Below are positions 1,930 through 10,134 of a stretch of DNA of 64,000 nt, piece after piece. The notes beneath the pieces are model-generated. The model searched no databases. It saw only the letters and a program-made list of their open reading frames with translations, and was not told where the DNA came from. Each line of letters starts with the position of its first letter. Position 1 is the stretch's first letter. The DNA is from Escherichia coli. GTDB lineage: Bacteria > Pseudomonadota > Gammaproteobacteria > Enterobacterales > Enterobacteriaceae. The stretch is from NCBI RefSeq assembly GCF_024700885.2, contig NZ_CP117016.1; one strand, 5' to 3'. The position numbers were made by a program, and so were the translations under genes.

Positions 1930-1944
1930 GATTAATCTCCGCTA

Positions 1945-2145
1945 TCAGCTTGAATGTTGTGGGGAGGAATTAATCATGATCTGCTTAATCTCAGCCCTGA
2001 TGCGACGGTTTGATTCCATGGTGCACTCAACACAGTGTCCGTTGTAAACCCAGCGTTCACTGTCATGTCCGTGCTTACATGGTTTTCCGGTGTAGTAGCG
2101 TTTAAGTCCGCGCTTTGCGGCATCAATACGTGTAATGATTTCCAT
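1945..2145 (-). CDS. Small zinc-ribbon-like phage protein (occupies cII position); start uncertain (ORF open to 2214)
   Basis: ORF with CxxH...CxxC pattern (YTGKPCKHGH...GHCVEC); located between Cro-like gene and O-like gene. Confidence 0.4.
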   Translation of the reverse strand: MEIITRIDAAKRGLKRYYTGKPCKHGHDSERWVYNGHCVECTMESNRRIRAEIKQIMINSSPQHSS

Positions 2146-2249
2146 GGTAAGCCCTGTTATTAGTATTGGGATTACGGTCATTTTGTGCTGACACAAAAAA
2201 AAGATCAACCACATTTGGTTTTTTATTACCCTTAAGGTGCGAATAGATA

Positions 2250-2274
2250 TGAAAAGACCGCCGGATGGCGGTCT
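2250..2274 (-). terminator. Intrinsic terminator downstream of Cro-like gene (tR1-like position)
   Basis: Reverse strand hairpin AGACCGCC-atcc-GGCGGTCT followed by TTTTC. Confidence 0.5.
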
Positions 2275-2295
2275 ACAGAGGGTTGTGGCTGGATA

Positions 2296-2526
2296 TCATG
2301 AGTAGAAGAAGTATGCCAATTCTGCTTTTGAGCGCAGCCATTGTCTTGTTTTACAGGCTTTAAAAAGCCCATTCATCAATACCTTACCTGGCATTTTGCG
2401 CTTACCTGTTAAGTGAGTCTGGATATAGTGACTCGTCGTTCCGGCTTCCTGTGCGAAGGCTTCACGCTCATCCGGAGTAAGTGCAAGCCAGTGCTTTTTG
2501 AAATCGAAATGTCCGTTATCGCTCAT
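2296..2526 (-). CDS. Cro/DicC-like small DNA-binding protein (putative)
   Basis: 76 aa ORF divergent from repressor gene across operator-containing intergenic region; weak SD. Confidence 0.5.
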   Translation of the reverse strand: MSDNGHFDFKKHWLALTPDEREAFAQEAGTTSHYIQTHLTGKRKMPGKVLMNGLFKACKTRQWLRSKAELAYFFYS

Positions 2527-2562
2527 AGCTATTGCCTGATATTTATTTCAGATAATAAATAT

Positions 2563-2625
2563 TCACCCATAAGGTAACAAAAATCAAGGATAGTTACCCA
2601 TGAGGTGCATTTACCTGTTGGGTAA
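2563..2625. promoter_or_regulatory. OR-like operator cluster (three TTACC-N5-GGTAA-type dyads) in divergent repressor/cro intergenic region
   Basis: TCACCCATAAGGTAA (2563-2577), TTACCCATGAGGTGC (2594-2608), TTACCTGTTGGGTAA (2611-2625). Confidence 0.55.
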
Positions 2626-2680
2626 TATTGCTTTAAATTGAATCATCTTCTGATTCATATATGAGGCGATTTTCCAGAAA

Positions 2681-3265
2681 ATGAAAAGTATCCAAGACGT
2701 CCGCAGGCAAAATCTCAACGACTTGATCGACCGTGAATTCAATGGTGTTCAGACGCGGATGGCTGAAAAACTTGGAACTCAGGCAAATCTGGTAAACCGC
2801 TGGGCTCTTGGCAAGAAGGTTATCGGCGACCAGGTTGCGCGAAAAATTGAAGCTGCCGCCAATAAACCACGTAACTGGCTTGATATCGATCGCTCGCTTT
2901 CTCAGGAGGGTTTTCAGCCTGTCGGACCAAGCGACATTGGTCAGCTGGCGGCTCACAACCTGGAACGCTGGATGAGCGAAAGCCGCGACCTTTCAACACA
3001 GGGAAAACTTCACCGCGCATCCGGCGTCGCCCAAGTGACAATCAGCCGCCTGTTAAACAATGAGGTCAGCGTTTCCATTTCCACCCTGGAGAATGTTGCA
3101 TCTGCATTCGGACGTCACGGATATGAACTACTGATTCACCCGCACGACCCTGCAACTATCAACTATGACCGCTCGCGCTACGCATTGTTACCTGAAACCG
3201 AGAAAGCAAAGATCGAAAGTTACATTGAATTTGTCATCAACCAGAACGAAAAAAACAAACAATAA
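2681..3265 (+). CDS. Prophage repressor-like protein with two HTH (XRE-type) domains; no S24 peptidase domain evident
   Basis: 194 aa ORF; two segments with HTH-like pattern (MAEKLGTQANLVNRWALGKK... and ASGVAQVTISRLLNNEVSVSISTLENVASAFG); divergent from Cro-like gene; followed by terminator. Confidence 0.6.
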   Translation: MKSIQDVRRQNLNDLIDREFNGVQTRMAEKLGTQANLVNRWALGKKVIGDQVARKIEAAANKPRNWLDIDRSLSQEGFQPVGPSDIGQLAAHNLERWMSESRDLSTQGKLHRASGVAQVTISRLLNNEVSVSISTLENVASAFGRHGYELLIHPHDPATINYDRSRYALLPETEKAKIESYIEFVINQNEKNKQ

Positions 3266-3285
3266 AATCATATTTTTCAGTAAGT

Positions 3286-3312
3286 AAGCCGCCAAATGGC
3301 GGCTTTTTTATT
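3286..3312 (+). terminator. Intrinsic terminator after repressor gene
   Basis: AAGCCGCC-aaat-GGCGGCTTTTTTATT. Confidence 0.6.
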
Positions 3313-3313
3313 G

Positions 3314-3390
3314 TCTATTTAATTACCTTGCAGGTAATTTTTTCAACTCATACCTATTGACATCAAACCAAATACGCATAATCATTACCT
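3314..3390 (+). promoter_or_regulatory. OL-like operator pair flanking candidate early promoter
   Basis: Perfect dyads TTACCTTGCAGGTAA (3314-3328) and TTACCTCAACGGTAA (3376-3390) bracket TTGACA (3348-3353) and a CATAAT-like -10; directly upstream of rightward early operon. Confidence 0.5.
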
Positions 3391-3418
3391 CAACGGTAAC
3401 AAGCTGAGGTAACAAGTT

Positions 3419-3571
3419 ATGCAGTGGAAAATCATCAACGGTTGGTACTGCGTTACTGCATGCGGATTCATGAGCTGGAAGTTCCGCACCTTACAGGAAG
3501 GCATTAAGTGGGCTTTCGTCAGCAAAGAAGCTCGCGATGTGGCCAACGATAACGAGATATGGGAGGGCTGA
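3419..3571 (+). CDS. Small hypothetical protein (50 aa), first ORF of early rightward operon
   Basis: ATG preceded by GAGGTAA SD; MQWKIINGWYCVTACGFMSWKFRTLQEGIKWAFVSKEARDVANDNEIWEG; not in ORF track (below length cut-off). Confidence 0.35.
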   Translation: MQWKIINGWYCVTACGFMSWKFRTLQEGIKWAFVSKEARDVANDNEIWEG

Positions 3572-3573
3572 TA

Positions 3574-3873
3574 ATGAACGTTAATCAGCAGCAAAATCTT
3601 CAAAAAATCATGCTGGCATTCGACAAGGACTACCGCCTGTCAGAACAGCTATATGACCGACAAGTTGAACTGATCGAAAGCATCCGGCTTCATCAACTAG
3701 CCTCAACTTTCGACGCTGTAACAGGTAAAGGCGTTCGCCAGGAAGTACTGGAGGCCGCTAAAGACAGTCCAGAGTTCGAAGAACTGATGGATTCCTACCG
3801 GCGCGAGGCAATGGCAATTATCGCCCGCTGGGATCTGGCTGATCAGCTTGATGGGCAGAGGGACGCGGCATGA
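3574..3873 (+). CDS. Hypothetical phage protein (99 aa)
   Basis: ATG at 3574 with GGAGGG SD 8 nt upstream (track start 3559 lacks SD); stop overlaps next gene start (ATGA). Confidence 0.55.
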   Translation: MNVNQQQNLQKIMLAFDKDYRLSEQLYDRQVELIESIRLHQLASTFDAVTGKGVRQEVLEAAKDSPEFEELMDSYRREAMAIIARWDLADQLDGQRDAA

Positions 3874-4691
3874 AGCCGGGAATTTATTTCGACATCAGCA
3901 ACGAAGACTACCACGCCGGGGACGGCGTGAGTAAGTCGCAACTGGACATGGTTGCCAAGAATCCGGCGCTTCTTAAATGGGTTCAGGCAGCACCAGAAGA
4001 CGAAGAGAAAAAGTCTGCACTGGATATGGGAACCGCATTGCACTGTCTGCTTCTGGAGCCTGGAGAATTCAACAAACGCTTCATTGTTTCACCGAAATTC
4101 GATCGTCGGACGAAACAAGGTAAAGCTGACGAAGAAGCATTTCTTCGTGATGTAGCGGATATGGGGATTACGGTACTTGATGCCGAGCAGTGGCGGAAAC
4201 TGGAGCTGATGCGTGATAGCGCAATGGCTCACCCGGCGGCACGCTGGATGCTGGAAGCACCTGGTTACTGCGAAGCATCAATGTACTGGAATGATGAAGA
4301 GACTGGTGAGTTGTGCCGCATTCGTCCAGACAAATGGCTGAACGAGCACAACGTGATCGTCGACGTGAAAAAGGTTGCAGATATGGACCGTTTTGCACGC
4401 CACATCGAGGAATTCCGCTACCACGTGCAGGACGCAATGTACCGCGAAGGAGCGATGAGGGTTACTGGTCAGTCGCATGGTTTTTTCTTTCTTGCCGTGA
4501 GCGAAAGCATTGATTGTGGTCGGTATCCGGTACGCGTGTTCGAGCTGGATGCGCCGGATGTCGATGCCGGGCACGCTCTGTTCCGCCGGGATCTGAATAC
4601 CTATCACGAATGCCGCATCAATGATGAATGGGGCGGCGTGGAAATTATTAAACGCCCTGACTGGGCACGTAAACAGGATATGTACGTATGA
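3870..4691 (+). CDS. PD-(D/E)XK-family phage exonuclease-like protein
   Basis: 273 aa; D...IVDVKK-type nuclease motif; translationally coupled to flanking genes. Confidence 0.6.
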   Translation: MKPGIYFDISNEDYHAGDGVSKSQLDMVAKNPALLKWVQAAPEDEEKKSALDMGTALHCLLLEPGEFNKRFIVSPKFDRRTKQGKADEEAFLRDVADMGITVLDAEQWRKLELMRDSAMAHPAARWMLEAPGYCEASMYWNDEETGELCRIRPDKWLNEHNVIVDVKKVADMDRFARHIEEFRYHVQDAMYREGAMRVTGQSHGFFFLAVSESIDCGRYPVRVFELDAPDVDAGHALFRRDLNTYHECRINDEWGGVEIIKRPDWARKQDMYV

Positions 4692-5569
4692 GCAATGATA
4701 TCGCAATCACATCACAACCAGGCGCAACTGTAGGTACTGCTGCGGCAATCTTCAGCCCGGAGGGCATGAATCAACTGGTGCGTTTCGCGGAGTTGATGTC
4801 ACAAAGCAAAGCGACTGTACCGAAACATCTTGAAGGCAAACCTGCCGATTGTCTGGCGGTGACCATGCAGGCGGCACAGTGGGGAATGAACCCTTTCGCC
4901 GTGGCGCAGAAAACGCATGTGGTAAACGGAACGTTAGGCTACGAAGCACAGTTGGTAAACGCGGTCGTATCCTCTTCCAGCCTGCTAGCGACACGCCTGA
5001 ATTATCGCTGGAGCGGTGACTGGTCGAATGTTAACGGCAAAACAGATAAATCACCGAATCTGACGGTAACTGTGTCAGCAGTTCTTAAAGGAGAAGCAGA
5101 ACCCCGTGAGCTTACCATCAGTATGGCGCAAGCCGGAGTGCGTAACTCTCCATTGTGGGAACAGGATCCGCGCCAGCAGCTTGCCTATCTTTGCACGAAA
5201 CGATGGGCTCGCCTGCACGCTCCTGATGTACTTCTCGGTGTTTACACCCCTGACGAATTACAGGAAACGGCACCGCGCGTTGAGCGAGACATTACTCCGC
5301 AAACGACTACTGCTGCGGGAATGAACAGTCTGATCAACGCTAAACCAGTGAAAAAGCCTGATGAGCAAACGCGTAAAGCGGATAGCCGTGATCCAGAAGA
5401 AATGCTGATGGCCTTTACCAGCGCAGCGATGAATTACAGCACTGTCTCCGAACTGGATAAGGCTTACAAATACATTGCACAAAAACTTTCAGATGATGAC
5501 GAACTGCTGGCAAAAGCCACCGACGTTTACAGCGTTCGTCGGGAAGAATTAAACGAAACATCTATGTAA
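4688..5569 (+). CDS. Putative single-strand annealing recombination protein (RecT/Bet-like); family assignment tentative
   Basis: 293 aa ORF start-stop overlapping the exonuclease gene (ATGA), the typical exo/SSAP arrangement. Confidence 0.4.
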   Translation: MSNDIAITSQPGATVGTAAAIFSPEGMNQLVRFAELMSQSKATVPKHLEGKPADCLAVTMQAAQWGMNPFAVAQKTHVVNGTLGYEAQLVNAVVSSSSLLATRLNYRWSGDWSNVNGKTDKSPNLTVTVSAVLKGEAEPRELTISMAQAGVRNSPLWEQDPRQQLAYLCTKRWARLHAPDVLLGVYTPDELQETAPRVERDITPQTTTAAGMNSLINAKPVKKPDEQTRKADSRDPEEMLMAFTSAAMNYSTVSELDKAYKYIAQKLSDDDELLAKATDVYSVRREELNETSM

Positions 5570-5618
5570 CCACCACCGCGGCGCCACGCGCGCCGCACTG
5601 CAACCAAGAGAGGTATTT

Positions 5619-5867
5619 ATGAAAGGTGCATTAGGTAAGAAGGAACTCCTGGCGGTGGTGCCACTGTCATGGAGCACTATCGACCGTATGGAGCGCGCAG
5701 GGGAATTTCCTAAACGCTGGTATATCACCGATAAACGCTGCGCATGGAACCGTGATGAAGTTGAGCGTTGGCTTGATGAACGTCAGGCAGCAAGCCCGGC
5801 AGAGTTCCAGGGTAAAAAACCTCCTGTTCAGCAACGTGTATATCGTCCTGTGAGCAACGCGGCATGA
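5619..5867 (+). CDS. AlpA-family phage transcriptional regulator / excisionase-like protein
   Basis: 82 aa; pattern LSWSTIDRMERAGEFPKRWYI...WNRDEVERWL typical of AlpA-type HTH; AGAGAGG SD. Confidence 0.7.
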   Translation: MKGALGKKELLAVVPLSWSTIDRMERAGEFPKRWYITDKRCAWNRDEVERWLDERQAASPAEFQGKKPPVQQRVYRPVSNAA

Positions 5868-5976
5868 GTGTGCTGCTAAGGCACTGGAGCAAATGGTCAG
5901 GATGGTACTTATTCCTGGCCTCTGTTTCAGCATGGCTTTATCTGCTGGCATTAATTTTCAGAGAGGGTTGGATTAA

Positions 5977-6276
5977 GTGAGAAAGTTAAGCCGACTTGAA
6001 AAATATCACATGAACAAGGTTTCAATGCGCAGCCCTTCAAAGGTTGTTGCCGTTACTCCTGCGGCGATAGAGATCGAAAAACGCGCGATTGAAAGAGAGA
6101 AAAAAGGGCAGTTCCGCATTGCCGCCCACCTTTGGCTTCAGTGTATGGATGTTGCTTCTGGTGATGTTGAACGTGCAAGGATCGCGGTTCGCAGGGACCA
6201 ATGTATCACAAAAGGTAACGGCCTTCGCCGTGGCGACTATAGCGGCATAGGATGTTGTGGGGTGGTTTATGACTAA
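5977..6276 (+). CDS. PerC-like small regulator (putative); GTG start
   Basis: 99 aa; RIAAHLWLQCMDV...DVERARIAVRRDQCI resembles PerC-family pattern; GAGGGT SD before GTG 5977. Confidence 0.4.
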   Translation: MRKLSRLEKYHMNKVSMRSPSKVVAVTPAAIEIEKRAIEREKKGQFRIAAHLWLQCMDVASGDVERARIAVRRDQCITKGNGLRRGDYSGIGCCGVVYD

Positions 6277-6919
6277 GAAATACACACTAATCTATGCAGA
6301 TCCACCCTGGGCATACCGGGACAAAGCCACAGATGGTAATCGCGGTGCCGGTTTTAAATATCCGGTTATGAGTGTGCTGGATATCTGCCGCCTTCCTGTG
6401 TGGGATTTGGCCGGTGAAAACTGTCTGTTGGCCATGTGGTGGGTGCCAACACAACCACTCGAAGCACTAAAAGTTGTTGAAGCCTGGGGATTCCGTCTGA
6501 TGACCATGAAGGGCTTCACGTGGATAAAATGTGGTAGTCGACAACCAGATAAACTGGTTATGGGGATGGGACACATGACTCGCGCCAACAGTGAAGATTG
6601 CCTGTTTGCGGTAAAGGGAAAACTACCTCCGCGCATTAATGCAGGTATCGTTCAGTCATTTACCGCACCGCGGCTTGAGCATTCAAGAAAACCAGATGTC
6701 GTTCGTGAAAAACTTGTGCAATTGTTAGGCGATGTTTCTCGCATTGAACTGTTCGCCCGCCAGTCGTCTCATGGCTTCGATGTTTGGGGTAATCAGTGCG
6801 AAGACCCGGCAGTGCAACTACACCCAGGATACGCGTTGGATATTGCCGGATTAACAAATGCATTCAGCAATGCTCCGCTGTCACCAACAGACAACCAGGG
6901 GCGGGAGCGTGCAGCATGA
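6269..6919 (+). CDS. MT-A70 family DNA N6-adenine methyltransferase
   Basis: DPPW catalytic motif (LIYADPPWAY); ATG 6269 preferred over GTG 6257; stop overlaps next ORF. Confidence 0.75.
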   Translation: MTKKYTLIYADPPWAYRDKATDGNRGAGFKYPVMSVLDICRLPVWDLAGENCLLAMWWVPTQPLEALKVVEAWGFRLMTMKGFTWIKCGSRQPDKLVMGMGHMTRANSEDCLFAVKGKLPPRINAGIVQSFTAPRLEHSRKPDVVREKLVQLLGDVSRIELFARQSSHGFDVWGNQCEDPAVQLHPGYALDIAGLTNAFSNAPLSPTDNQGRERAA

Positions 6920-7110
6920 ACAGGGCATCACCAGCAGATTTAAGGAAATGCCTTGAAACTGCAAACATGCTTGCACACAGCGGGATCAGGTTTGTTCCAA
7001 TTCCCGCTGTCACTGATGCTGAATTTGCAACACTGTCAGCAATATTCACAGATAAAATTGAATCACTGGCAGCAGAAGCCGAGATGGAAGAAAATCAGCA
7101 GAACTATTAA
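6916..7110 (+). CDS. Small hypothetical phage protein (64 aa)
   Basis: ATG overlapping MTase stop (ATGA); MNRASPADLRKCLETANMLAHSGIRFVPIP...; convergent with integrase. Confidence 0.4.
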   Translation: MNRASPADLRKCLETANMLAHSGIRFVPIPAVTDAEFATLSAIFTDKIESLAAEAEMEENQQNY

Positions 7111-7113
7111 ACG

Positions 7114-8364
7114 TTATTCCCCCGCCATCCACTTCTCAAACTTCGACGGGGAGAACGGAATCAGATCCGTATGCTCCCCGTTAATCCAGGAATCAATCAT
7201 ATCGGCCCACTGCTGCAACATGTAGGCGCGCTGTCTGGCGTATTCCGCTTTGTTATATACGGCGCGCACACCTTTCTGCTCATGTGCCAGAGCCTTTTCA
7301 ATCCAGTCTGAAGGATAACCAGCCTCATGCAACAACGTACTGGCTGTACGGCGCATATCGTGTACGGTGAAGTCCTGAATATGCTCACCATCTTCATTTA
7401 TTATTTTCACCGTTCTGTCGATCAGAGAGTTCAGCGCGGCATTAGATAATGGCTTCCGGAAATTGTAACGACCAGGAACCAGATATTCACTTCCACCAGC
7501 GCACATCTGCAACCCGACCAATATATCCTGAACCTGTTTAGGCAGGTAAATAACATGCGCCCGGCTTCCCTTCATGCGGTCTGAAGGAATTGTCCATGTC
7601 CATTTTTTAAAATCTATTTCATCCCACGTTGCATTGGTGAATTCGCCCTTACGAACCATAGTGATAAGCACCAGTTTTAAAGCCATTTTCATAGTGCCCA
7701 TAGCACCAATGGCATCCAACGTGCGGAAGAACAGGCCAATTTCTTCTGGTGTCAGTGTTCGCTCTCGTGGTTTAAATATGGCGATAGACGAAGGTTTAAT
7801 GTCAGCCGCAGGATTAAACAAACCATGACCACGGTCATTGGCGTGACGGTATACGCTGCTGATGATCTCCCTGGCCTGTACTGCTGTTGCCCGACCACCG
7901 CGTTCGACAATCCGGTCACACAAATCACGAACCATCGATGTGGTAATTTCAGCCATCATTTTGTTGCCAAGAACCGGAAGTATGTCACGGTCGATCACCG
8001 CCTGCTTCATTGCGCGGGTACTGTCAGCCAGGATGACGTGTTTCATATAACTGTCGGTATGTACCGCAAACGTCTCGGCACCACGAATTTTTTTGATACC
8101 GTCACGTTTAGCCGCAGCCGGCGACTGGCCTGCTTTAAGCAGCTTCTTTGCAGCAATCAGTTCTTCTCGCGCTTCTGCCAGGCTGATACCGTCACGCCCA
8201 TACTGCCCGATTACCAGTGTTTCGCGGCGACCGTTGATACGGTAGTCATAGCGAAACGAGACCGTGCCTGACGTAAGCACAGCTACATACAGCCCGTCAC
8301 GATCGGAGACCTTGTACAGTTTGTCCTGCGGCTTGAGGTTTTTTAATTTTGTATCGGTAAGCAC
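7114..8364 (-). CDS. int: Tyrosine site-specific integrase (P4-type)
   Basis: 416 aa; N-terminal MLTDTKLKNLKP typical of P4-like integrases; R..H..R..Y catalytic region near C-terminus (HDMRRTASTLL, AHEQKGVRAVYNKAEY). Confidence 0.9.
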   Translation of the reverse strand: MLTDTKLKNLKPQDKLYKVSDRDGLYVAVLTSGTVSFRYDYRINGRRETLVIGQYGRDGISLAEAREELIAAKKLLKAGQSPAAAKRDGIKKIRGAETFAVHTDSYMKHVILADSTRAMKQAVIDRDILPVLGNKMMAEITTSMVRDLCDRIVERGGRATAVQAREIISSVYRHANDRGHGLFNPAADIKPSSIAIFKPRERTLTPEEIGLFFRTLDAIGAMGTMKMALKLVLITMVRKGEFTNATWDEIDFKKWTWTIPSDRMKGSRAHVIYLPKQVQDILVGLQMCAGGSEYLVPGRYNFRKPLSNAALNSLIDRTVKIINEDGEHIQDFTVHDMRRTASTLLHEAGYPSDWIEKALAHEQKGVRAVYNKAEYARQRAYMLQQWADMIDSWINGEHTDLIPFSPSKFEKWMAGE

Positions 8365-8392
8365 AATTCACCCGTATAGAAACCATTTTCAT

Positions 8393-8428
8393 GACGGTAT
8401 GAGAGTATACCTTTAAGGTAATACCGTC
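8393..8428. promoter_or_regulatory. Nested palindrome upstream of integrase start (candidate int operator or att-arm site)
   Basis: GACGGTAT...ATACCGTC outer inverted repeat enclosing TACCTTTAAGGTA, a near-copy of the TTACC-N5-GGTAA motif. Confidence 0.35.
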
Positions 8429-8480
8429 ACCTGTACCGCCGAAAAATATGGTGTAGAGTGAATAGAAATGAATACATAAA

Positions 8481-8510
8481 AACAAAAACCCCCTGCAAAA
8501 ACAGAGGGTT
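8481..8510 (-). terminator. Intrinsic terminator downstream of guaA
   Basis: Reverse strand CCCUCUG-UUUUU-CAGGGGG hairpin followed by UUUUUGUU. Confidence 0.55.
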
Positions 8511-8556
8511 GAGTTGGCATCTGAATAGGAATGATTTGCTATGAGTTAGCTGTTAA

Positions 8557-10134
8557 TCATTCCCACTCAATGGTAGCTGGCGGCTTGCCGCTGATGTCAT
8601 ACACCACGCGGGAAATACCGTTCACTTCATTGATAATGCGGTTGGAAACGCGACCGAGGAAATCGTACGGCAGATGCGCCCAGTGTGCGGTCATAAAGTC
8701 GATGGTTTCGACAGCACGCAGAGAAACAACCCAGTCATACTTACGACCATCGCCCATTACACCAACGGAACGTACCGGCAGGAAGACGGTGAACGCCTGG
8801 CTGACTTTGTCGTACAGGTCCGCTTTACGCAGTTCTTCAATAAAGATGGCGTCAGCACGGCGCAGCAGGTCGCAGTACTCTTTCTTCACTTCGCCCAGTA
8901 CACGAACGCCGAGGCCTGGTCCCGGGAACGGGTGACGGTACAGCATGTCGTACGGCAGGCCCAGCTCCAGACCAATCTTACGCACTTCGTCTTTGAACAG
9001 CTCTTTCAGCGGTTCAACCAGCCCCATCTTCATCTCTTTCGGCAGGCCGCCCACGTTGTGGTGAGATTTGATGACGTGTGCTTTACCGGTTGCAGACGCC
9101 GCAGATTCGATAACGTCAGGGTAGATAGTACCCTGCGCCAGCCACTTCACGTCTTCCAGTTTCAGCGCTTCTTCATCGAATACTTCAACGAAAACGCGCC
9201 CGATGATTTTACGTTTTGCTTCCGGATCGTTTTCGCCGGCCAACGCTGACAGGAAGCGATCTTCTGCCGGAACGTGAACAATGTTCAGACCAAAGTGATC
9301 GCCAAACATATCCAGAACCTGCTCTGCTTCGTTGAGACGCAGCAGGCCGTTGTCGACGAATACGCAAGTCAGGTTTTTACCGATAGCGCGGTGCAGCAGC
9401 ATTGCGGTTACGGAGGAATCCACACCACCAGAGAGGCCGAGGATGACTTTATCGTCGCCTACCTGCTCGCGGATGCGAGCTACAGCATCGTCGATAATTT
9501 TCGCTGGCGTCCACAGGGCTTCACACTGGCAGATATCTCGCACAAAGCGCTCCAGCATGCGCATACCCTGGCGGGTGTGAGTCACTTCCGGGTGGAACTG
9601 TACGCCATAGAAGCGTTTTTCTTCGTTAGCCATAATGGCAAACGGGCAGCTTTCGGTGCTGGCTACGGTGACGAAGTCGGACGGGATAGCGGTAACTTTA
9701 TCGCCGTGGCTCATCCAGACATCGAGCAGAGGTTTACCGTCTGCGGTCAGAGCATCTTCAATACCGCGAACCAGTGCGCTGTCGTTTACGACTTCAACCT
9801 GCGCGTAGCCAAATTCACGTTCGTTAGAGGCTTCAACGTGACCGCCCAACTGCATTGCCATGGTCTGCATGCCATAGCAAACGCCGAATACCGGTACGCC
9901 TGCTTCAAAAACATACTGCGGCGCACGCGGGCTGTTTTCTTCGGTGGTGCTTTCCGGGCCGCCGGAAAGAATAATGCCGCTTGGGTTGAAGTCACGAATT
10001 TGTGCTTCTGTCACATCCCACGCCCACAGTTCGCAGTAAACGCCCAGCTCACGCACGCGGCGCGCAACCAGTTGAGTATACTGGGAACCGAAGTCCAGAA
10101 TGAGGATGCGATGCTTATGAATGTTTTCCGTCAT
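8557..10134 (-). CDS. guaA: GMP synthase (glutamine-hydrolysing)
   Basis: 525 aa; C-terminus ...PPATIEWE; GATase and ATP-PPase motifs (SGGVDSS). Confidence 0.97.

Follow-up and report, generated by a model that had tools for sequence, protein, structure and literature searches.

A PerC-like gene and an MT-A70 methyltransferase gene in a phiV10-type prophage of Escherichia coli

Within a 64,000-nucleotide stretch of an Escherichia coli chromosome (the window), a short gene resembling the PerC activators of pathogenic E. coli directly precedes a gene for an MT-A70 family adenine methyltransferase. An earlier note, made from the sequence alone, had proposed that this prophage-borne pair could act on host gene expression or on epigenetic marking. 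The locus raises the question of whether the two genes form a unit directed at the host or are ordinary genes of the phage. Both were found to be ordinary backbone genes of a common prophage, whose names are correct and were already in place in phiV10 and in genomes annotated by PGAP. The best explanation places them last in the early-left operon of a phiV10/epsilon15-type (Uetakevirus) prophage that is inserted beside guaA, at its 3' end. It is judged probable, a grading that applies jointly to all of its parts.

Gene identities and prophage setting

The profile search proposed in the earlier note detected both domains. The PerC-like protein matched the Pfam PerC family PF06069 at 30.1 bits (gathering cut-off 22.6, E 6e-07), a match limited to residues 35–80 and to profile positions 5–50 of 90, whereas canonical PerC scores 143 bits on the same profile. 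The family phrog_868, named 'transcriptional activator', was matched over the full length of the protein (E 6.5e-62), and BLASTP alignment with canonical EPEC PerC (pMAR2) gave 40% identity over 60 aa (pairwise E 2e-10); with these matches the family assignment, originally offered as tentative, was confirmed. Full-length correspondence to PerC or Pch was absent by Pfam and BLASTP, the termini being unrelated. The N-terminus is conserved across 34 homologues and, together with PGAP, favours the 99-aa form with a GTG start over the 88-aa form of RefSeq phiV10 p34. Positions E41, G44, A49, W53, E65, R66, R73 and C76 are invariant in the homologue alignment. The AF2 model is entirely alpha-helical, its core of three helices spanning residues 28–80 (core pLDDT 81–88); the nearest folds found by Foldseek, MIT/TPR-like helical bundles, were weak (E > 0.2), and a PDB sequence search gave no match. 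The protein is small, predicted to be all-helical and without an HTH or DNA-binding motif. It is a member of a tight Uetakevirus-specific subfamily of 138 clusters and scores 23.6 on the ANR family model NCBIfam NF033650, under the cut-off of 32.

The methylase matched Pfam MT-A70 (PF05063) from end to end, at 76.8 bits against a cut-off of 23.9, with residues 9–180 covering profile positions 1–172 of 172. The reading frame listed from a GTG at 6257 to 6919 truly starts at the ATG at 6269, because all homologues begin M-x-x-K-Y-T-L-I-Y-A-D-P-P-W, and PGAP gives the same start. Catalytic motif IV, the DPPW recognised previously, is intact at residues 11–14 with the SAM-binding block C-terminal to it, as in the beta-class order, and a segment IELFAR...H...WGNQ at 159–176 is invariant in seven homologues and aligns with MTA1-type chains. 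In the PDB, sequence matches were to ciliate MTA1-type MT-A70 proteins (E 5e-13) and METTL3 (2e-05). Given the strong profile matches and the conservation of the genes, neither the perC-like nor the methylase reading frame is a product of chance. Over aa 1–187 the methylase is 83% identical to gp05 of the Stx2a phage PA28; past residue 187 its tail is unrelated to that of PA28 and resembles the tails of the Tyrion and BUCT554 enzymes. A variable loop at residues 86–98 exists in an E. coli/Stx-phage type and a Salmonella/Klebsiella type, of which the window enzyme has the former, and segment 116–138 also varies between subgroups. No restriction endonuclease linked to the methylase was found by Pfam, PGAP or PADLOC, the flanking genes encoding the PerC-like protein, DUF1382 and an integrase, in agreement with its earlier description as an orphan.

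The suggested prophage origin was likewise borne out. The 1.7-kb region shares 98% identity with phiV10 and other Uetakevirus phages and was found in 560 of 5,426 complete E. coli genomes, in which the PGAP names are identical; a phiV10-type prophage is thus carried by about one in ten E. coli genomes. The related phage ZX5 integrates at the guaA 3' end (PMC9782041). By sequence and profiles, alpA is followed in the window by a 38-aa membrane ORF, perC-like, MT-A70 and DUF1382 (Table 1). The 38-aa ORF overlaps its neighbours at both ends, its start with the alpA stop (ATGA) and its stop with the perC-like GTG (GTGA), and the DUF1382 start overlaps the methylase stop (ATGA). Because stop and start codons overlap at all junctions, coupled translation of these genes as a single block is probable, and would occur once the operon is switched on. 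The DUF1382 and integrase stops are just 3 nt apart, and PA28 gp04, a DUF1382 relative, likewise sits after an MT-A70 gene.

The promoter-like site corresponds in position to the repressor-operator region annotated upstream of gp37 in epsilon15, and is regarded as a lead only because consensus matches in total were not above shuffle expectation (background level). No Rfam RNA family was detected within 3000–8700, and the repeat search returned just short integrase-type motifs. The orf6 and orf10 genes of phiv142-3, for which serum and iron phenotypes have been reported, were considered as possible copies of the two genes and rejected, being a tail fibre gene and a gene for an unrelated hypothetical protein.

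Table 1. Features of the prophage end and the adjoining chromosome, in window coordinates
Feature	Position	Strand	Evidence or remark
Terminator-like hairpin	3286-3305		Directly before the promoter-like site
Promoter-like site, TTGACA-17-AATCAT	3357..3385	+	Consensus scan; candidate early-left promoter of the operon ending perC-like, MT-A70, DUF1382
AlpA-family small HTH protein, excisionase/regulator type, 82 aa	5619..5867	+	Pfam PF05930, 24.2 bits (cut-off 21); phrog_66; phiV10 p36 equivalent
Hydrophobic ORF, 38 aa	5864..5980	+	Translates without internal stops; equivalent to phiV10 p35 / epsilon15 gp32, annotated as membrane protein
PerC-family small protein, 99 aa, GTG start	5977..6276	+	Pfam PF06069; phrog_868; EPEC PerC alignment; AF2 model
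Orphan MT-A70 family (beta-class) N6-adenine methyltransferase, 216 aa, predicted	6269..6919	+	Pfam PF05063, PADLOC and PDB matches
DUF1382 small protein, 64 aa	6916..7110	+	Pfam PF07131, 105.7 bits; phrog_292; 49% identical to PA28 gp04
P4-type tyrosine integrase, convergent with the operon	7114..8364	-	Pfam Arm-DNA-bind_3, Phage_int_M, Phage_integrase
Host guaA (GMP synthase)	8557..10134	-	Marks the prophage/chromosome junction

The junction between the two genes

The perC-like stop (TAA, 6274–6276) and the methylase ATG overlap by 8 nt, the ATG lying within the last perC-like codons. This adjacency of regulator and methylase had been singled out as a notable pairing, a view that the layout in relatives did not sustain. 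An ancestral-type order of alpA, TM ORF, perC-like, DUF1317, methylase and int occurs in epsilon15, SPC32N, Tyrion, two Klebsiella phages and BUCT554. Among the relatives the perC-like gene is usually parted from the methylase gene by DUF1317 and sometimes by further genes, the intervening genes in sister phages being DUF1317, a DndB-family gene or a winged-helix gene. The perC-like 3' end, GGGGTGGT(T/G)TATGACTAA, holds the ATG of the next gene, be it DUF1317, DndB or the methylase. The phiV10 lineage appears to have lost the DUF1317 gene between two ATGAC start contexts, and the perC-like and methylase genes would touch only because of this loss. The junction is in this sense a lineage-specific compaction and is therefore not to be read as a functional pair.

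For diversity, the sample consisted of GenBank phages and of contigs on which divergent PerC-like proteins are encoded. A scan of IMG/VR by the methylase returned near-identical loci only (96–100%), so its 80 loci (direct junction in 75, DndB insertion in four, deletion in one) serve variant counts rather than diversity.

The methylase slot does not always hold an MT-A70 enzyme; in Kosakonia, in Erwinia dacicola and in metagenomic relatives a Dam-family enzyme (PF05869) occupies it. The identity of this enzyme to the Stx-phage nin-region methylase is 48.6%, and that to methylases with a Dam or DNA methyltransferase annotation in ~49-kb coliphages, which we take to be T1-like, and in Klebsiella phages is approximately 40%. 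The view that the Dam enzyme of phage T1 is an MT-A70 protein was dropped: no T1-like phage was present among the listed MT-A70 matches, and the methylases annotated Dam in the ~49-kb coliphages matched the PF05869 query instead.

Methylase substrate and function of the PerC-like protein

Tested homologues, together with the Dam-family enzyme that takes the place of this gene in sister phages, make a Dam-like GATC DNA methylase the most likely identity of the protein. The MT-A70 enzymes PhiBZS1_p32 of a Serratia phage and M.EfaBMDam of Tn1549 have proved GATC-specific (PMC7556043), and M.EcoGV is cited as a GATC-specific MT-A70 enzyme in PMC10810198 and PMC6602927; in these sources, the prokaryotic MT-A70 enzymes tested for DNA specificity are GATC methylases. 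The PA28/PA8-type enzyme, 83% identical to the window methylase, is described as highly similar to M.EcoGV (PMC10810198), by way of which the window methylase may be close to an enzyme of measured GATC specificity. The HK639/PhiBZS1 branch is more distant: the HK639 enzyme shares 45% identity with the window methylase and 75% with PhiBZS1_p32. Methylation of GATC would keep replicating phage DNA fully methylated. Because it duplicates the activity of host Dam, no new mark or motif is expected in a Dam+ host, and the epigenetic marking envisaged previously is not supported in the sense of a new mark. The ratio of observed to expected GATC sites (prophage 0.78, chromosome 0.77) was uninformative. 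M.EcoPA8orf6770P purified alone had neither GATC nor other DNA activity in vitro (PMC10810198), and since it is the closest characterised relative, with an 83% identical core, this counts against the GATC reading.

By sequence relationship, the PerC-like protein belongs with PerC and Pch and, more distantly, with the ANR proteins. The targets of these families are nucleoprotein complexes containing H-NS, or regulators to which they bind directly. Pch acts via displacement of H-NS (PMC4764244), and ANR proteins are described in the literature as binding H-NS and AraC-type regulators. The PerC-like protein would most likely relieve H-NS-type silencing or retune transcription for the phage; this is the weakest step of the explanation, an anti-H-NS role being extrapolated from homologues with which just ~45–60 aligned residues are shared.

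Control of a virulence regulon, the role first implied for the PerC-like protein, would make it a lysogenic-conversion regulator activating LEE/ler-type or other host virulence promoters like PerC and PchABC. Its membership of the Pfam PerC family and its 40% identity to EPEC PerC in the conserved core are consistent with this, and the LEE1 activators Pch are prophage-encoded (PMC4764244). However, the PerC profile is matched in its N-terminal half only, and the gene sits in the early-left operon rather than being a separately expressed moron. It is, moreover, a conserved backbone gene in epsilon15-like phages of Salmonella, Klebsiella, Enterobacter, Citrobacter, Kosakonia, Erwinia and Pluralibacter, hosts that to our knowledge are not known to carry LEE. 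Lysogeny by ZX5, whose region is 97.9% identical to that of the window, altered neither HeLa adherence nor virulence (PMC9782041). A virulence regulator of this kind is considered highly improbable, and LEE activation an unlikely native role. The methylase would lay a new m6A pattern on the host chromosome if its specificity were relaxed or other than GATC. Specificity could differ within the group because loop 86–98 differs between subgroups, as does segment 116–138, and some prophage beta-class enzymes are non-specific, M.EcoGII for one and, according to PMC7556043, the OS31 enzyme for another. The loops of the window enzyme are nevertheless of the Stx-phage type, a group whose enzymes are listed as GATC (M.EcoGV), the more distant PhiBZS1_p32 is likewise GATC-specific, and STEC methylomes with M.EcoGV homologues gave no extra attributable motif (PMC6602927), all of which makes a deviating specificity distinctly unlikely. 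That the enzyme provides the modification activity of a restriction-modification system or of another defence against phages is scarcely credible: it matches the PADLOC Type II model (MTase_II, 258 bits) and is accompanied by a DndB-family gene in some relatives, but the DndB-family gene is absent from the window, the operon holds no endonuclease or other defence gene, the neighbours being DUF1382 and the integrase, and the PerC-like, DUF1382 and AlpA proteins have no PADLOC match.

Alternatively, the methylase may be an RNA methyltransferase that binds an adjacently encoded small protein, either PerC-like or DUF1382, methylates 16S rRNA in the 30S subunit and raises spontaneous prophage induction. 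This reading is regarded as unlikely, and the narrower proposal of a partner-dependent 16S rRNA methyltransferase targeted by the translationally coupled PerC-like or DUF1382 protein, rather than a redundant Dam, as very unlikely; were it true, PerC-family proteins would be methyltransferase adaptors tuning spontaneous induction. The precedent is M.EcoPA8orf6770P, which binds the product of the immediately upstream gene, PNB-2, in a 1:1 ratio, prefers 16S rRNA and 30S subunits as a complex and raises spontaneous induction (PMC10810198). The window methylase shares its variable loops, as well as its 83% identity, with the PA28 copy; the perC-like gene, its stop overlapping the methylase start, lies upstream and overlapping just as PNB-2 does; DUF1382 is the neighbour of MT-A70 in the window, PA28 and L093; and MT-A70 enzymes, as the literature states in general terms, commonly need a partner. 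In contrast, no PNB-2 homologue is present anywhere in the window, PNB-2 and the PerC-like protein are without similarity, and the C-terminal STEC-type tail of ~27 residues, linked by the original authors to PNB-2 binding, differs in the window methylase. Covariation of the tail with the upstream gene, considered as a mark of the PerC-like protein being the dedicated partner, was rejected, as Tyrion and BUCT554 share the tail yet have a wHTH gene or DUF1317 directly upstream. Among the 80 close loci the DndB-family gene separates perC-like from the methylase in four and DUF1382 is missing downstream in 25; the methylase is found without perC-like at one locus, and perC-like persists where a Dam-family methylase replaces MT-A70. 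The published rRNA claim consists of SAM-consumption assays with the modified base unmapped, and AlphaFold, according to the original authors, failed on the PNB-2 complex (PMC10810198). As they stand, the two genes have little significance beyond being correctly annotated backbone genes of a common prophage.

Comparison with known systems

The closest system is phiV10, in which p34 (a PerC-family 'transcriptional activator'), p33 (DNA methyltransferase) and p32 (DUF1382) have the same order and overlaps as in the window. The DNA is 98.2% identical and the three proteins 98%, 97% and 98%, so that phiV10 differs in essentially nothing, apart from RefSeq p34 beginning at a downstream ATG. The Salmonella phage epsilon15, type species of the genus, has an orthologous early-left operon adjoining int, with a PerC-like gp31 79% identical to the window protein and a methylase 76% identical. 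In epsilon15 a truncated DUF1317 ORF and a spacer of 46 nt still part the perC-like gene from the methylase gene, and its methylase, at 192 aa, has another loop allele and is without the long C-terminal tail.

PerC of EPEC pMAR2 and the prophage-encoded Pch of EHEC share a core of ~60 residues with the PerC-like protein, and all are small helical proteins on mobile elements; the PerC-like protein differs in a 33-residue N-terminal extension and in its C-terminus. The ANR proteins (Aar, Rnr, Cnr) appear to have the same ~45-residue helical core, with a weak NCBIfam match, predicted three-helix structures and protein-protein contacts, but are shorter, and their genes are linked to AraC-type activator genes, of which none lies beside perC-like in the window.

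Among the methylases, PhiBZS1_p32 and M.EfaBMDam are more distant members of the same Pfam family with the same small single-domain build, and phage copies of GATC-specific MT-A70 genes adjoin an integrase gene (PMC7556043), as the window methylase lies near one. The eukaryotic MT-A70 proteins of the ciliate MTA1/MTA9 complex and METTL3-METTL14 are the best matches among solved structures and share the DPPW motif and the C-terminal ELFAR...WGNQ block; they are obligate heteromers with extra domains, whereas the window methylase is a bare catalytic domain. The Stx-phage enzymes M.EcoPA8orf6770P (gp5 of Stx2a phage PA8) and M.EcoGV (O104:H4), for which the 83% identity over aa 1–187 was measured on the PA28 copy, have the same variable loops, DUF1382 downstream and a position near int. 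They differ in belonging to lambdoid phages, in the C-terminal tail and in having PNB-2, unrelated to PerC, as the upstream gene. Their reported substrates conflict, with M.EcoGV acting on GATC DNA in vivo and the PNB-2 holoenzyme on 16S rRNA in vitro, and the literature on this phage MT-A70 clade is split between GATC DNA methylation and a partner-dependent 16S rRNA methylation that raises Stx-phage induction. Because the Uetakevirus copies are without PNB-2, differ in their tails and give way to a Dam-family methylase in sister phages, they form a natural comparison set that could help to settle this disagreement.

Identity and prophage setting of the two genes

The coordinates at which the earlier note had placed a PerC-like regulator beside an MT-A70 methyltransferase frame two real genes exactly, and its tentative PerC assignment was borne out by profile search, in which the 99-aa protein scored 30.1 bits against a Pfam PerC threshold of 22.6. 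Residues 35-80 alone align to that profile (positions 5-50 of 90); the protein matches phrog_868 over its full length and falls under the NCBIfam ANR cut-off (23.6 versus 32). It is 40% identical to the canonical PerC of EPEC (pMAR2) over 60 residues (E 2e-10), and 11 positions are invariant in an alignment of 34 homologues and PerC. AlphaFold predicts an all-helical protein whose helices span residues 28-43, 46-59 and 63-80 (pLDDT 81-88); a helix-turn-helix was not found in this model, and the nearest solved folds, MIT/TPR-like bundles, match weakly. At 90% identity the subfamily comprises just 138 clusters, its named members are all from Enterobacterales, and every perC-like locus examined was an early-left operon of Uetakevirus type. 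Natural fusions occur among related database proteins: P0089 joins the 38-aa hydrophobic ORF, itself kept in phiV10 (p35) and epsilon15 (gp32), to the PerC-like core; and of the variants P0119 and P0113, one has the N-terminal half of the PerC-like protein fused to a DUF1382 domain, implying deletion of the methylase, and another is PerC-DUF1317.

The methylase covers the whole MT-A70 profile (76.8 bits), with DPPW, the motif named in the earlier note, at residues 11-14 and an intact C-terminal ELFAR...WGNQ block. Its true start is the ATG at 6269, a mechanical ORF list having given GTG 6257. No nuclease is linked to it, in keeping with the earlier note, and the enzyme is therefore an orphan. 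It is 83% identical over residues 1-187 to the copy in the Stx2a phage PA28. Comparison with loci L003 and L084-L089 revealed a mosaic: at loops 86-98 and 116-138 the enzyme has the Stx2a-phage allele, and over its last 30 residues it agrees with the Enterobacter phages Tyrion and BUCT554. Copies from Salmonella and Klebsiella carry the alternative loop allele and end in short tails.

Both genes lie in the prophage right arm (positions 1 to about 8400), within a plus-strand run (3870-7110) joined by stop/start overlaps. Beyond the repressor gene lies a strong terminator-like hairpin and, after it, a promoter-like site, a layout matched by epsilon15, where repressor operators are annotated upstream of the first early-left gene; because the scan's total counts were at background level, this site is a lead only. 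The scan predicted no internal promoter or terminator ahead of the integrase, and no terminator between the stops of DUF1382 and the convergent integrase, which are separated by 3 nt (7108-7116), so that early-left transcription would run antisense into int. RNase III sites are annotated in the equivalent region of epsilon15. A ATACCGTCAC(G) motif is repeated in both orientations within the integrase gene and slightly past it, close to the guaA junction, and resembles the arm-type integrase binding sites annotated within epsilon15 int.

Features of the window and of related loci
Feature	Locus	Position	Strand	Remark
Terminator-like hairpin	window	3286-3305
Promoter-like site	window	3357-3385
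PD-(D/E)XK nuclease	window	3870-4691	+
RecT	window	4688-5569	+
AlpA-type protein	window	5619-5867	+
38-aa hydrophobic ORF (MSVLLRHWSKWSGWYLFLASVSAWLYLLALIFREGWIK)	window	5864-5980	+	bridges alpA and perC-like via ATGA and GTGA overlaps
PerC-like ORF	window	5977-6276	+
MT-A70 ORF	window	6269-6919	+
DUF1382	window	6916-7110	+
Integrase	window	7114-8364	-	convergent with plus-strand genes; ends prophage, directly adjoins guaA
ATACCGTCAC(G) repeats	window	7837-7852, 8096-8110, 8186-8200, 8384-8400, 8421-8435		both orientations
guaA (host)	window	8557-10134	-
DndB-family gene	L029	1898-3001
DndB-family gene	L085 (SPC32N)	1937-3004
Metallophos Ser/Thr phosphatase	L037	3648-4307		post-methylase slot
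Winged-helix-like proteins	L086 (Tyrion)	3463-3690, 4324-4530		either side of methylase
PF05869 methylase	L091 (Kosakonia)	5819-6373
PF05869 methylase	L094 (Erwinia dacicola)	4484-5035
PF05869 methylase	L096 (metagenomic)	3337-3729
PF05869 methylase	L097 (metagenomic)

Gene order around the methylase

In Stx2a phage PA8, the MT-A70 enzyme binds 1:1 to PNB-2, which is encoded by the next gene upstream (PMC10810198). This made the perC-like/methylase adjacency worth testing, as the perC-like gene sits where PNB-2 would be and overlaps the methylase gene by 8 nt. No relationship was found between PNB-2 and the PerC-like protein, and the 64-kb window holds no PNB-2 homologue. The regulator/methylase pair singled out by the earlier note did not hold up as a dedicated unit, as gene order varies among relatives. 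The usual Uetakevirus order is perC-like, DUF1317, methylase (epsilon15, Klebsiella phages, BUCT554), and in some phages DUF1317 is followed by an extra gene, which belongs to the DndB family in SPC32N, is of wHTH type in Tyrion and is an unknown gene of 203 aa in L099. The window-type methylase tail is shared by Tyrion and BUCT554, which nevertheless have another gene immediately upstream. Among 80 near-identical IMG/VR loci the direct junction is present in 75, a DndB-family gene is inserted in four, and one has lost perC-like but not the methylase.

The perC-like 3' end (GGGGTGGTTTATGACTAA) holds the ATG of whichever gene comes next, and the epsilon15 and BUCT554 methylases likewise begin ATGAC; the phiV10 arrangement thus appears to have arisen by deletion from one ATGAC context to the other. 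The slightly different direct junction of a Pluralibacter prophage (L098) suggests a second, independent loss. Adjacency arises from operon compaction, and comparative anatomy, as read from these sequences, argues against a dedicated pair.

The DndB-family gene (PF14072, DGQHR-type) lies exactly between perC-like and methylase in L029, overlapping both, and recurs in L044, L047, L066 and SPC32N, a minority of the relatives from E. coli and Salmonella; no further dnd genes were seen near these insertions. Downstream, DUF1382 is missing in 25 of the 80 close loci and lies upstream of the methylase in L093; in lambdoid Stx2a phages, too, it comes after MT-A70. The upstream winged-helix-like protein of Tyrion (75 aa) passes Pfam HTH_24 and may be an analogue of PNB-2.

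Methylase activity

Four loci retaining perC-like carry a PF05869 'Dam' family enzyme in the methylase slot; it shares 48.6% identity with the Stx-phage nin-region methylase and about 40% with annotated Dam/DNA methyltransferases of ~49-kb coliphages and Klebsiella phages. The Stx-phage Dam homologue M.EcoVT2Dam, taken to be of this type, targets GATC (PMC6602927). The swap suggests that one adenine methylase family has taken the place of another, non-orthologous one, which would make the slot's job Dam-like DNA methylation. Such a role fits what direct assays of prokaryotic MT-A70 enzymes have shown: PhiBZS1_p32 rendered the DNA of a Dam- host MboI-resistant and DpnI-sensitive, M.EfaBMDam of Tn1549 is GATC-specific (both PMC7556043), and plasmid-expressed M.EcoGV methylated GATC (PMC10810198, PMC6602927).

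The main rival, a partner-dependent RNA methyltransferase with the PerC-like protein or DUF1382 as adaptor, draws on the PA8 enzyme, which is inactive alone, had no DNA activity when purified, and with PNB-2 preferred 16S rRNA and 30S subunits; it also increases spontaneous induction (PMC10810198). On the evidence here this reading is disfavoured, and GATC DNA methylation is, by analogy, the most likely activity of the window methylase. A GATC-type methylase in Dam+ E. coli would yield no new motif.

The PerC-like protein and known phages

The hosts of phages carrying this subfamily are not known to have LEE, and LEE activation is therefore unlikely to be the native function of the PerC-like protein. 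Pch lifts silencing by H-NS/StpA/Hha (PMC4764244), and direct binding to H-NS and to AraC-type regulators is described for ANR proteins (PMC4983702, PMC10148876). By analogy, we propose, as the least supported step of the explanation, that the protein would act early in phage expression, changing H-NS-type nucleoprotein complexes through protein contacts. Phage ZX5, reported to integrate at the guaA 3' end, is 97.9% identical to the window in the perC-like/MT-A70 region; its lysogeny left growth, biofilm, HeLa adherence and virulence unchanged (PMC9782041), a result that speaks against any strong phenotype of conversion.

The 1.7 kb surrounding the pair occurs in 560 complete E. coli genomes out of 5,426, and PGAP names its genes 'PerC family transcriptional regulator', 'MT-A70 family methyltransferase' and 'DUF1382 family protein'. 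As annotation the finding is not new, and the pair is an ordinary, previously annotated piece of a widespread prophage: phiV10 and other Uetakevirus (epsilon15-like) podophages are 98% identical to the window over this 1.7 kb, and phiV10 p34, p33 and p32 carry the same annotations as the PerC-like, MT-A70 and DUF1382 genes described here.
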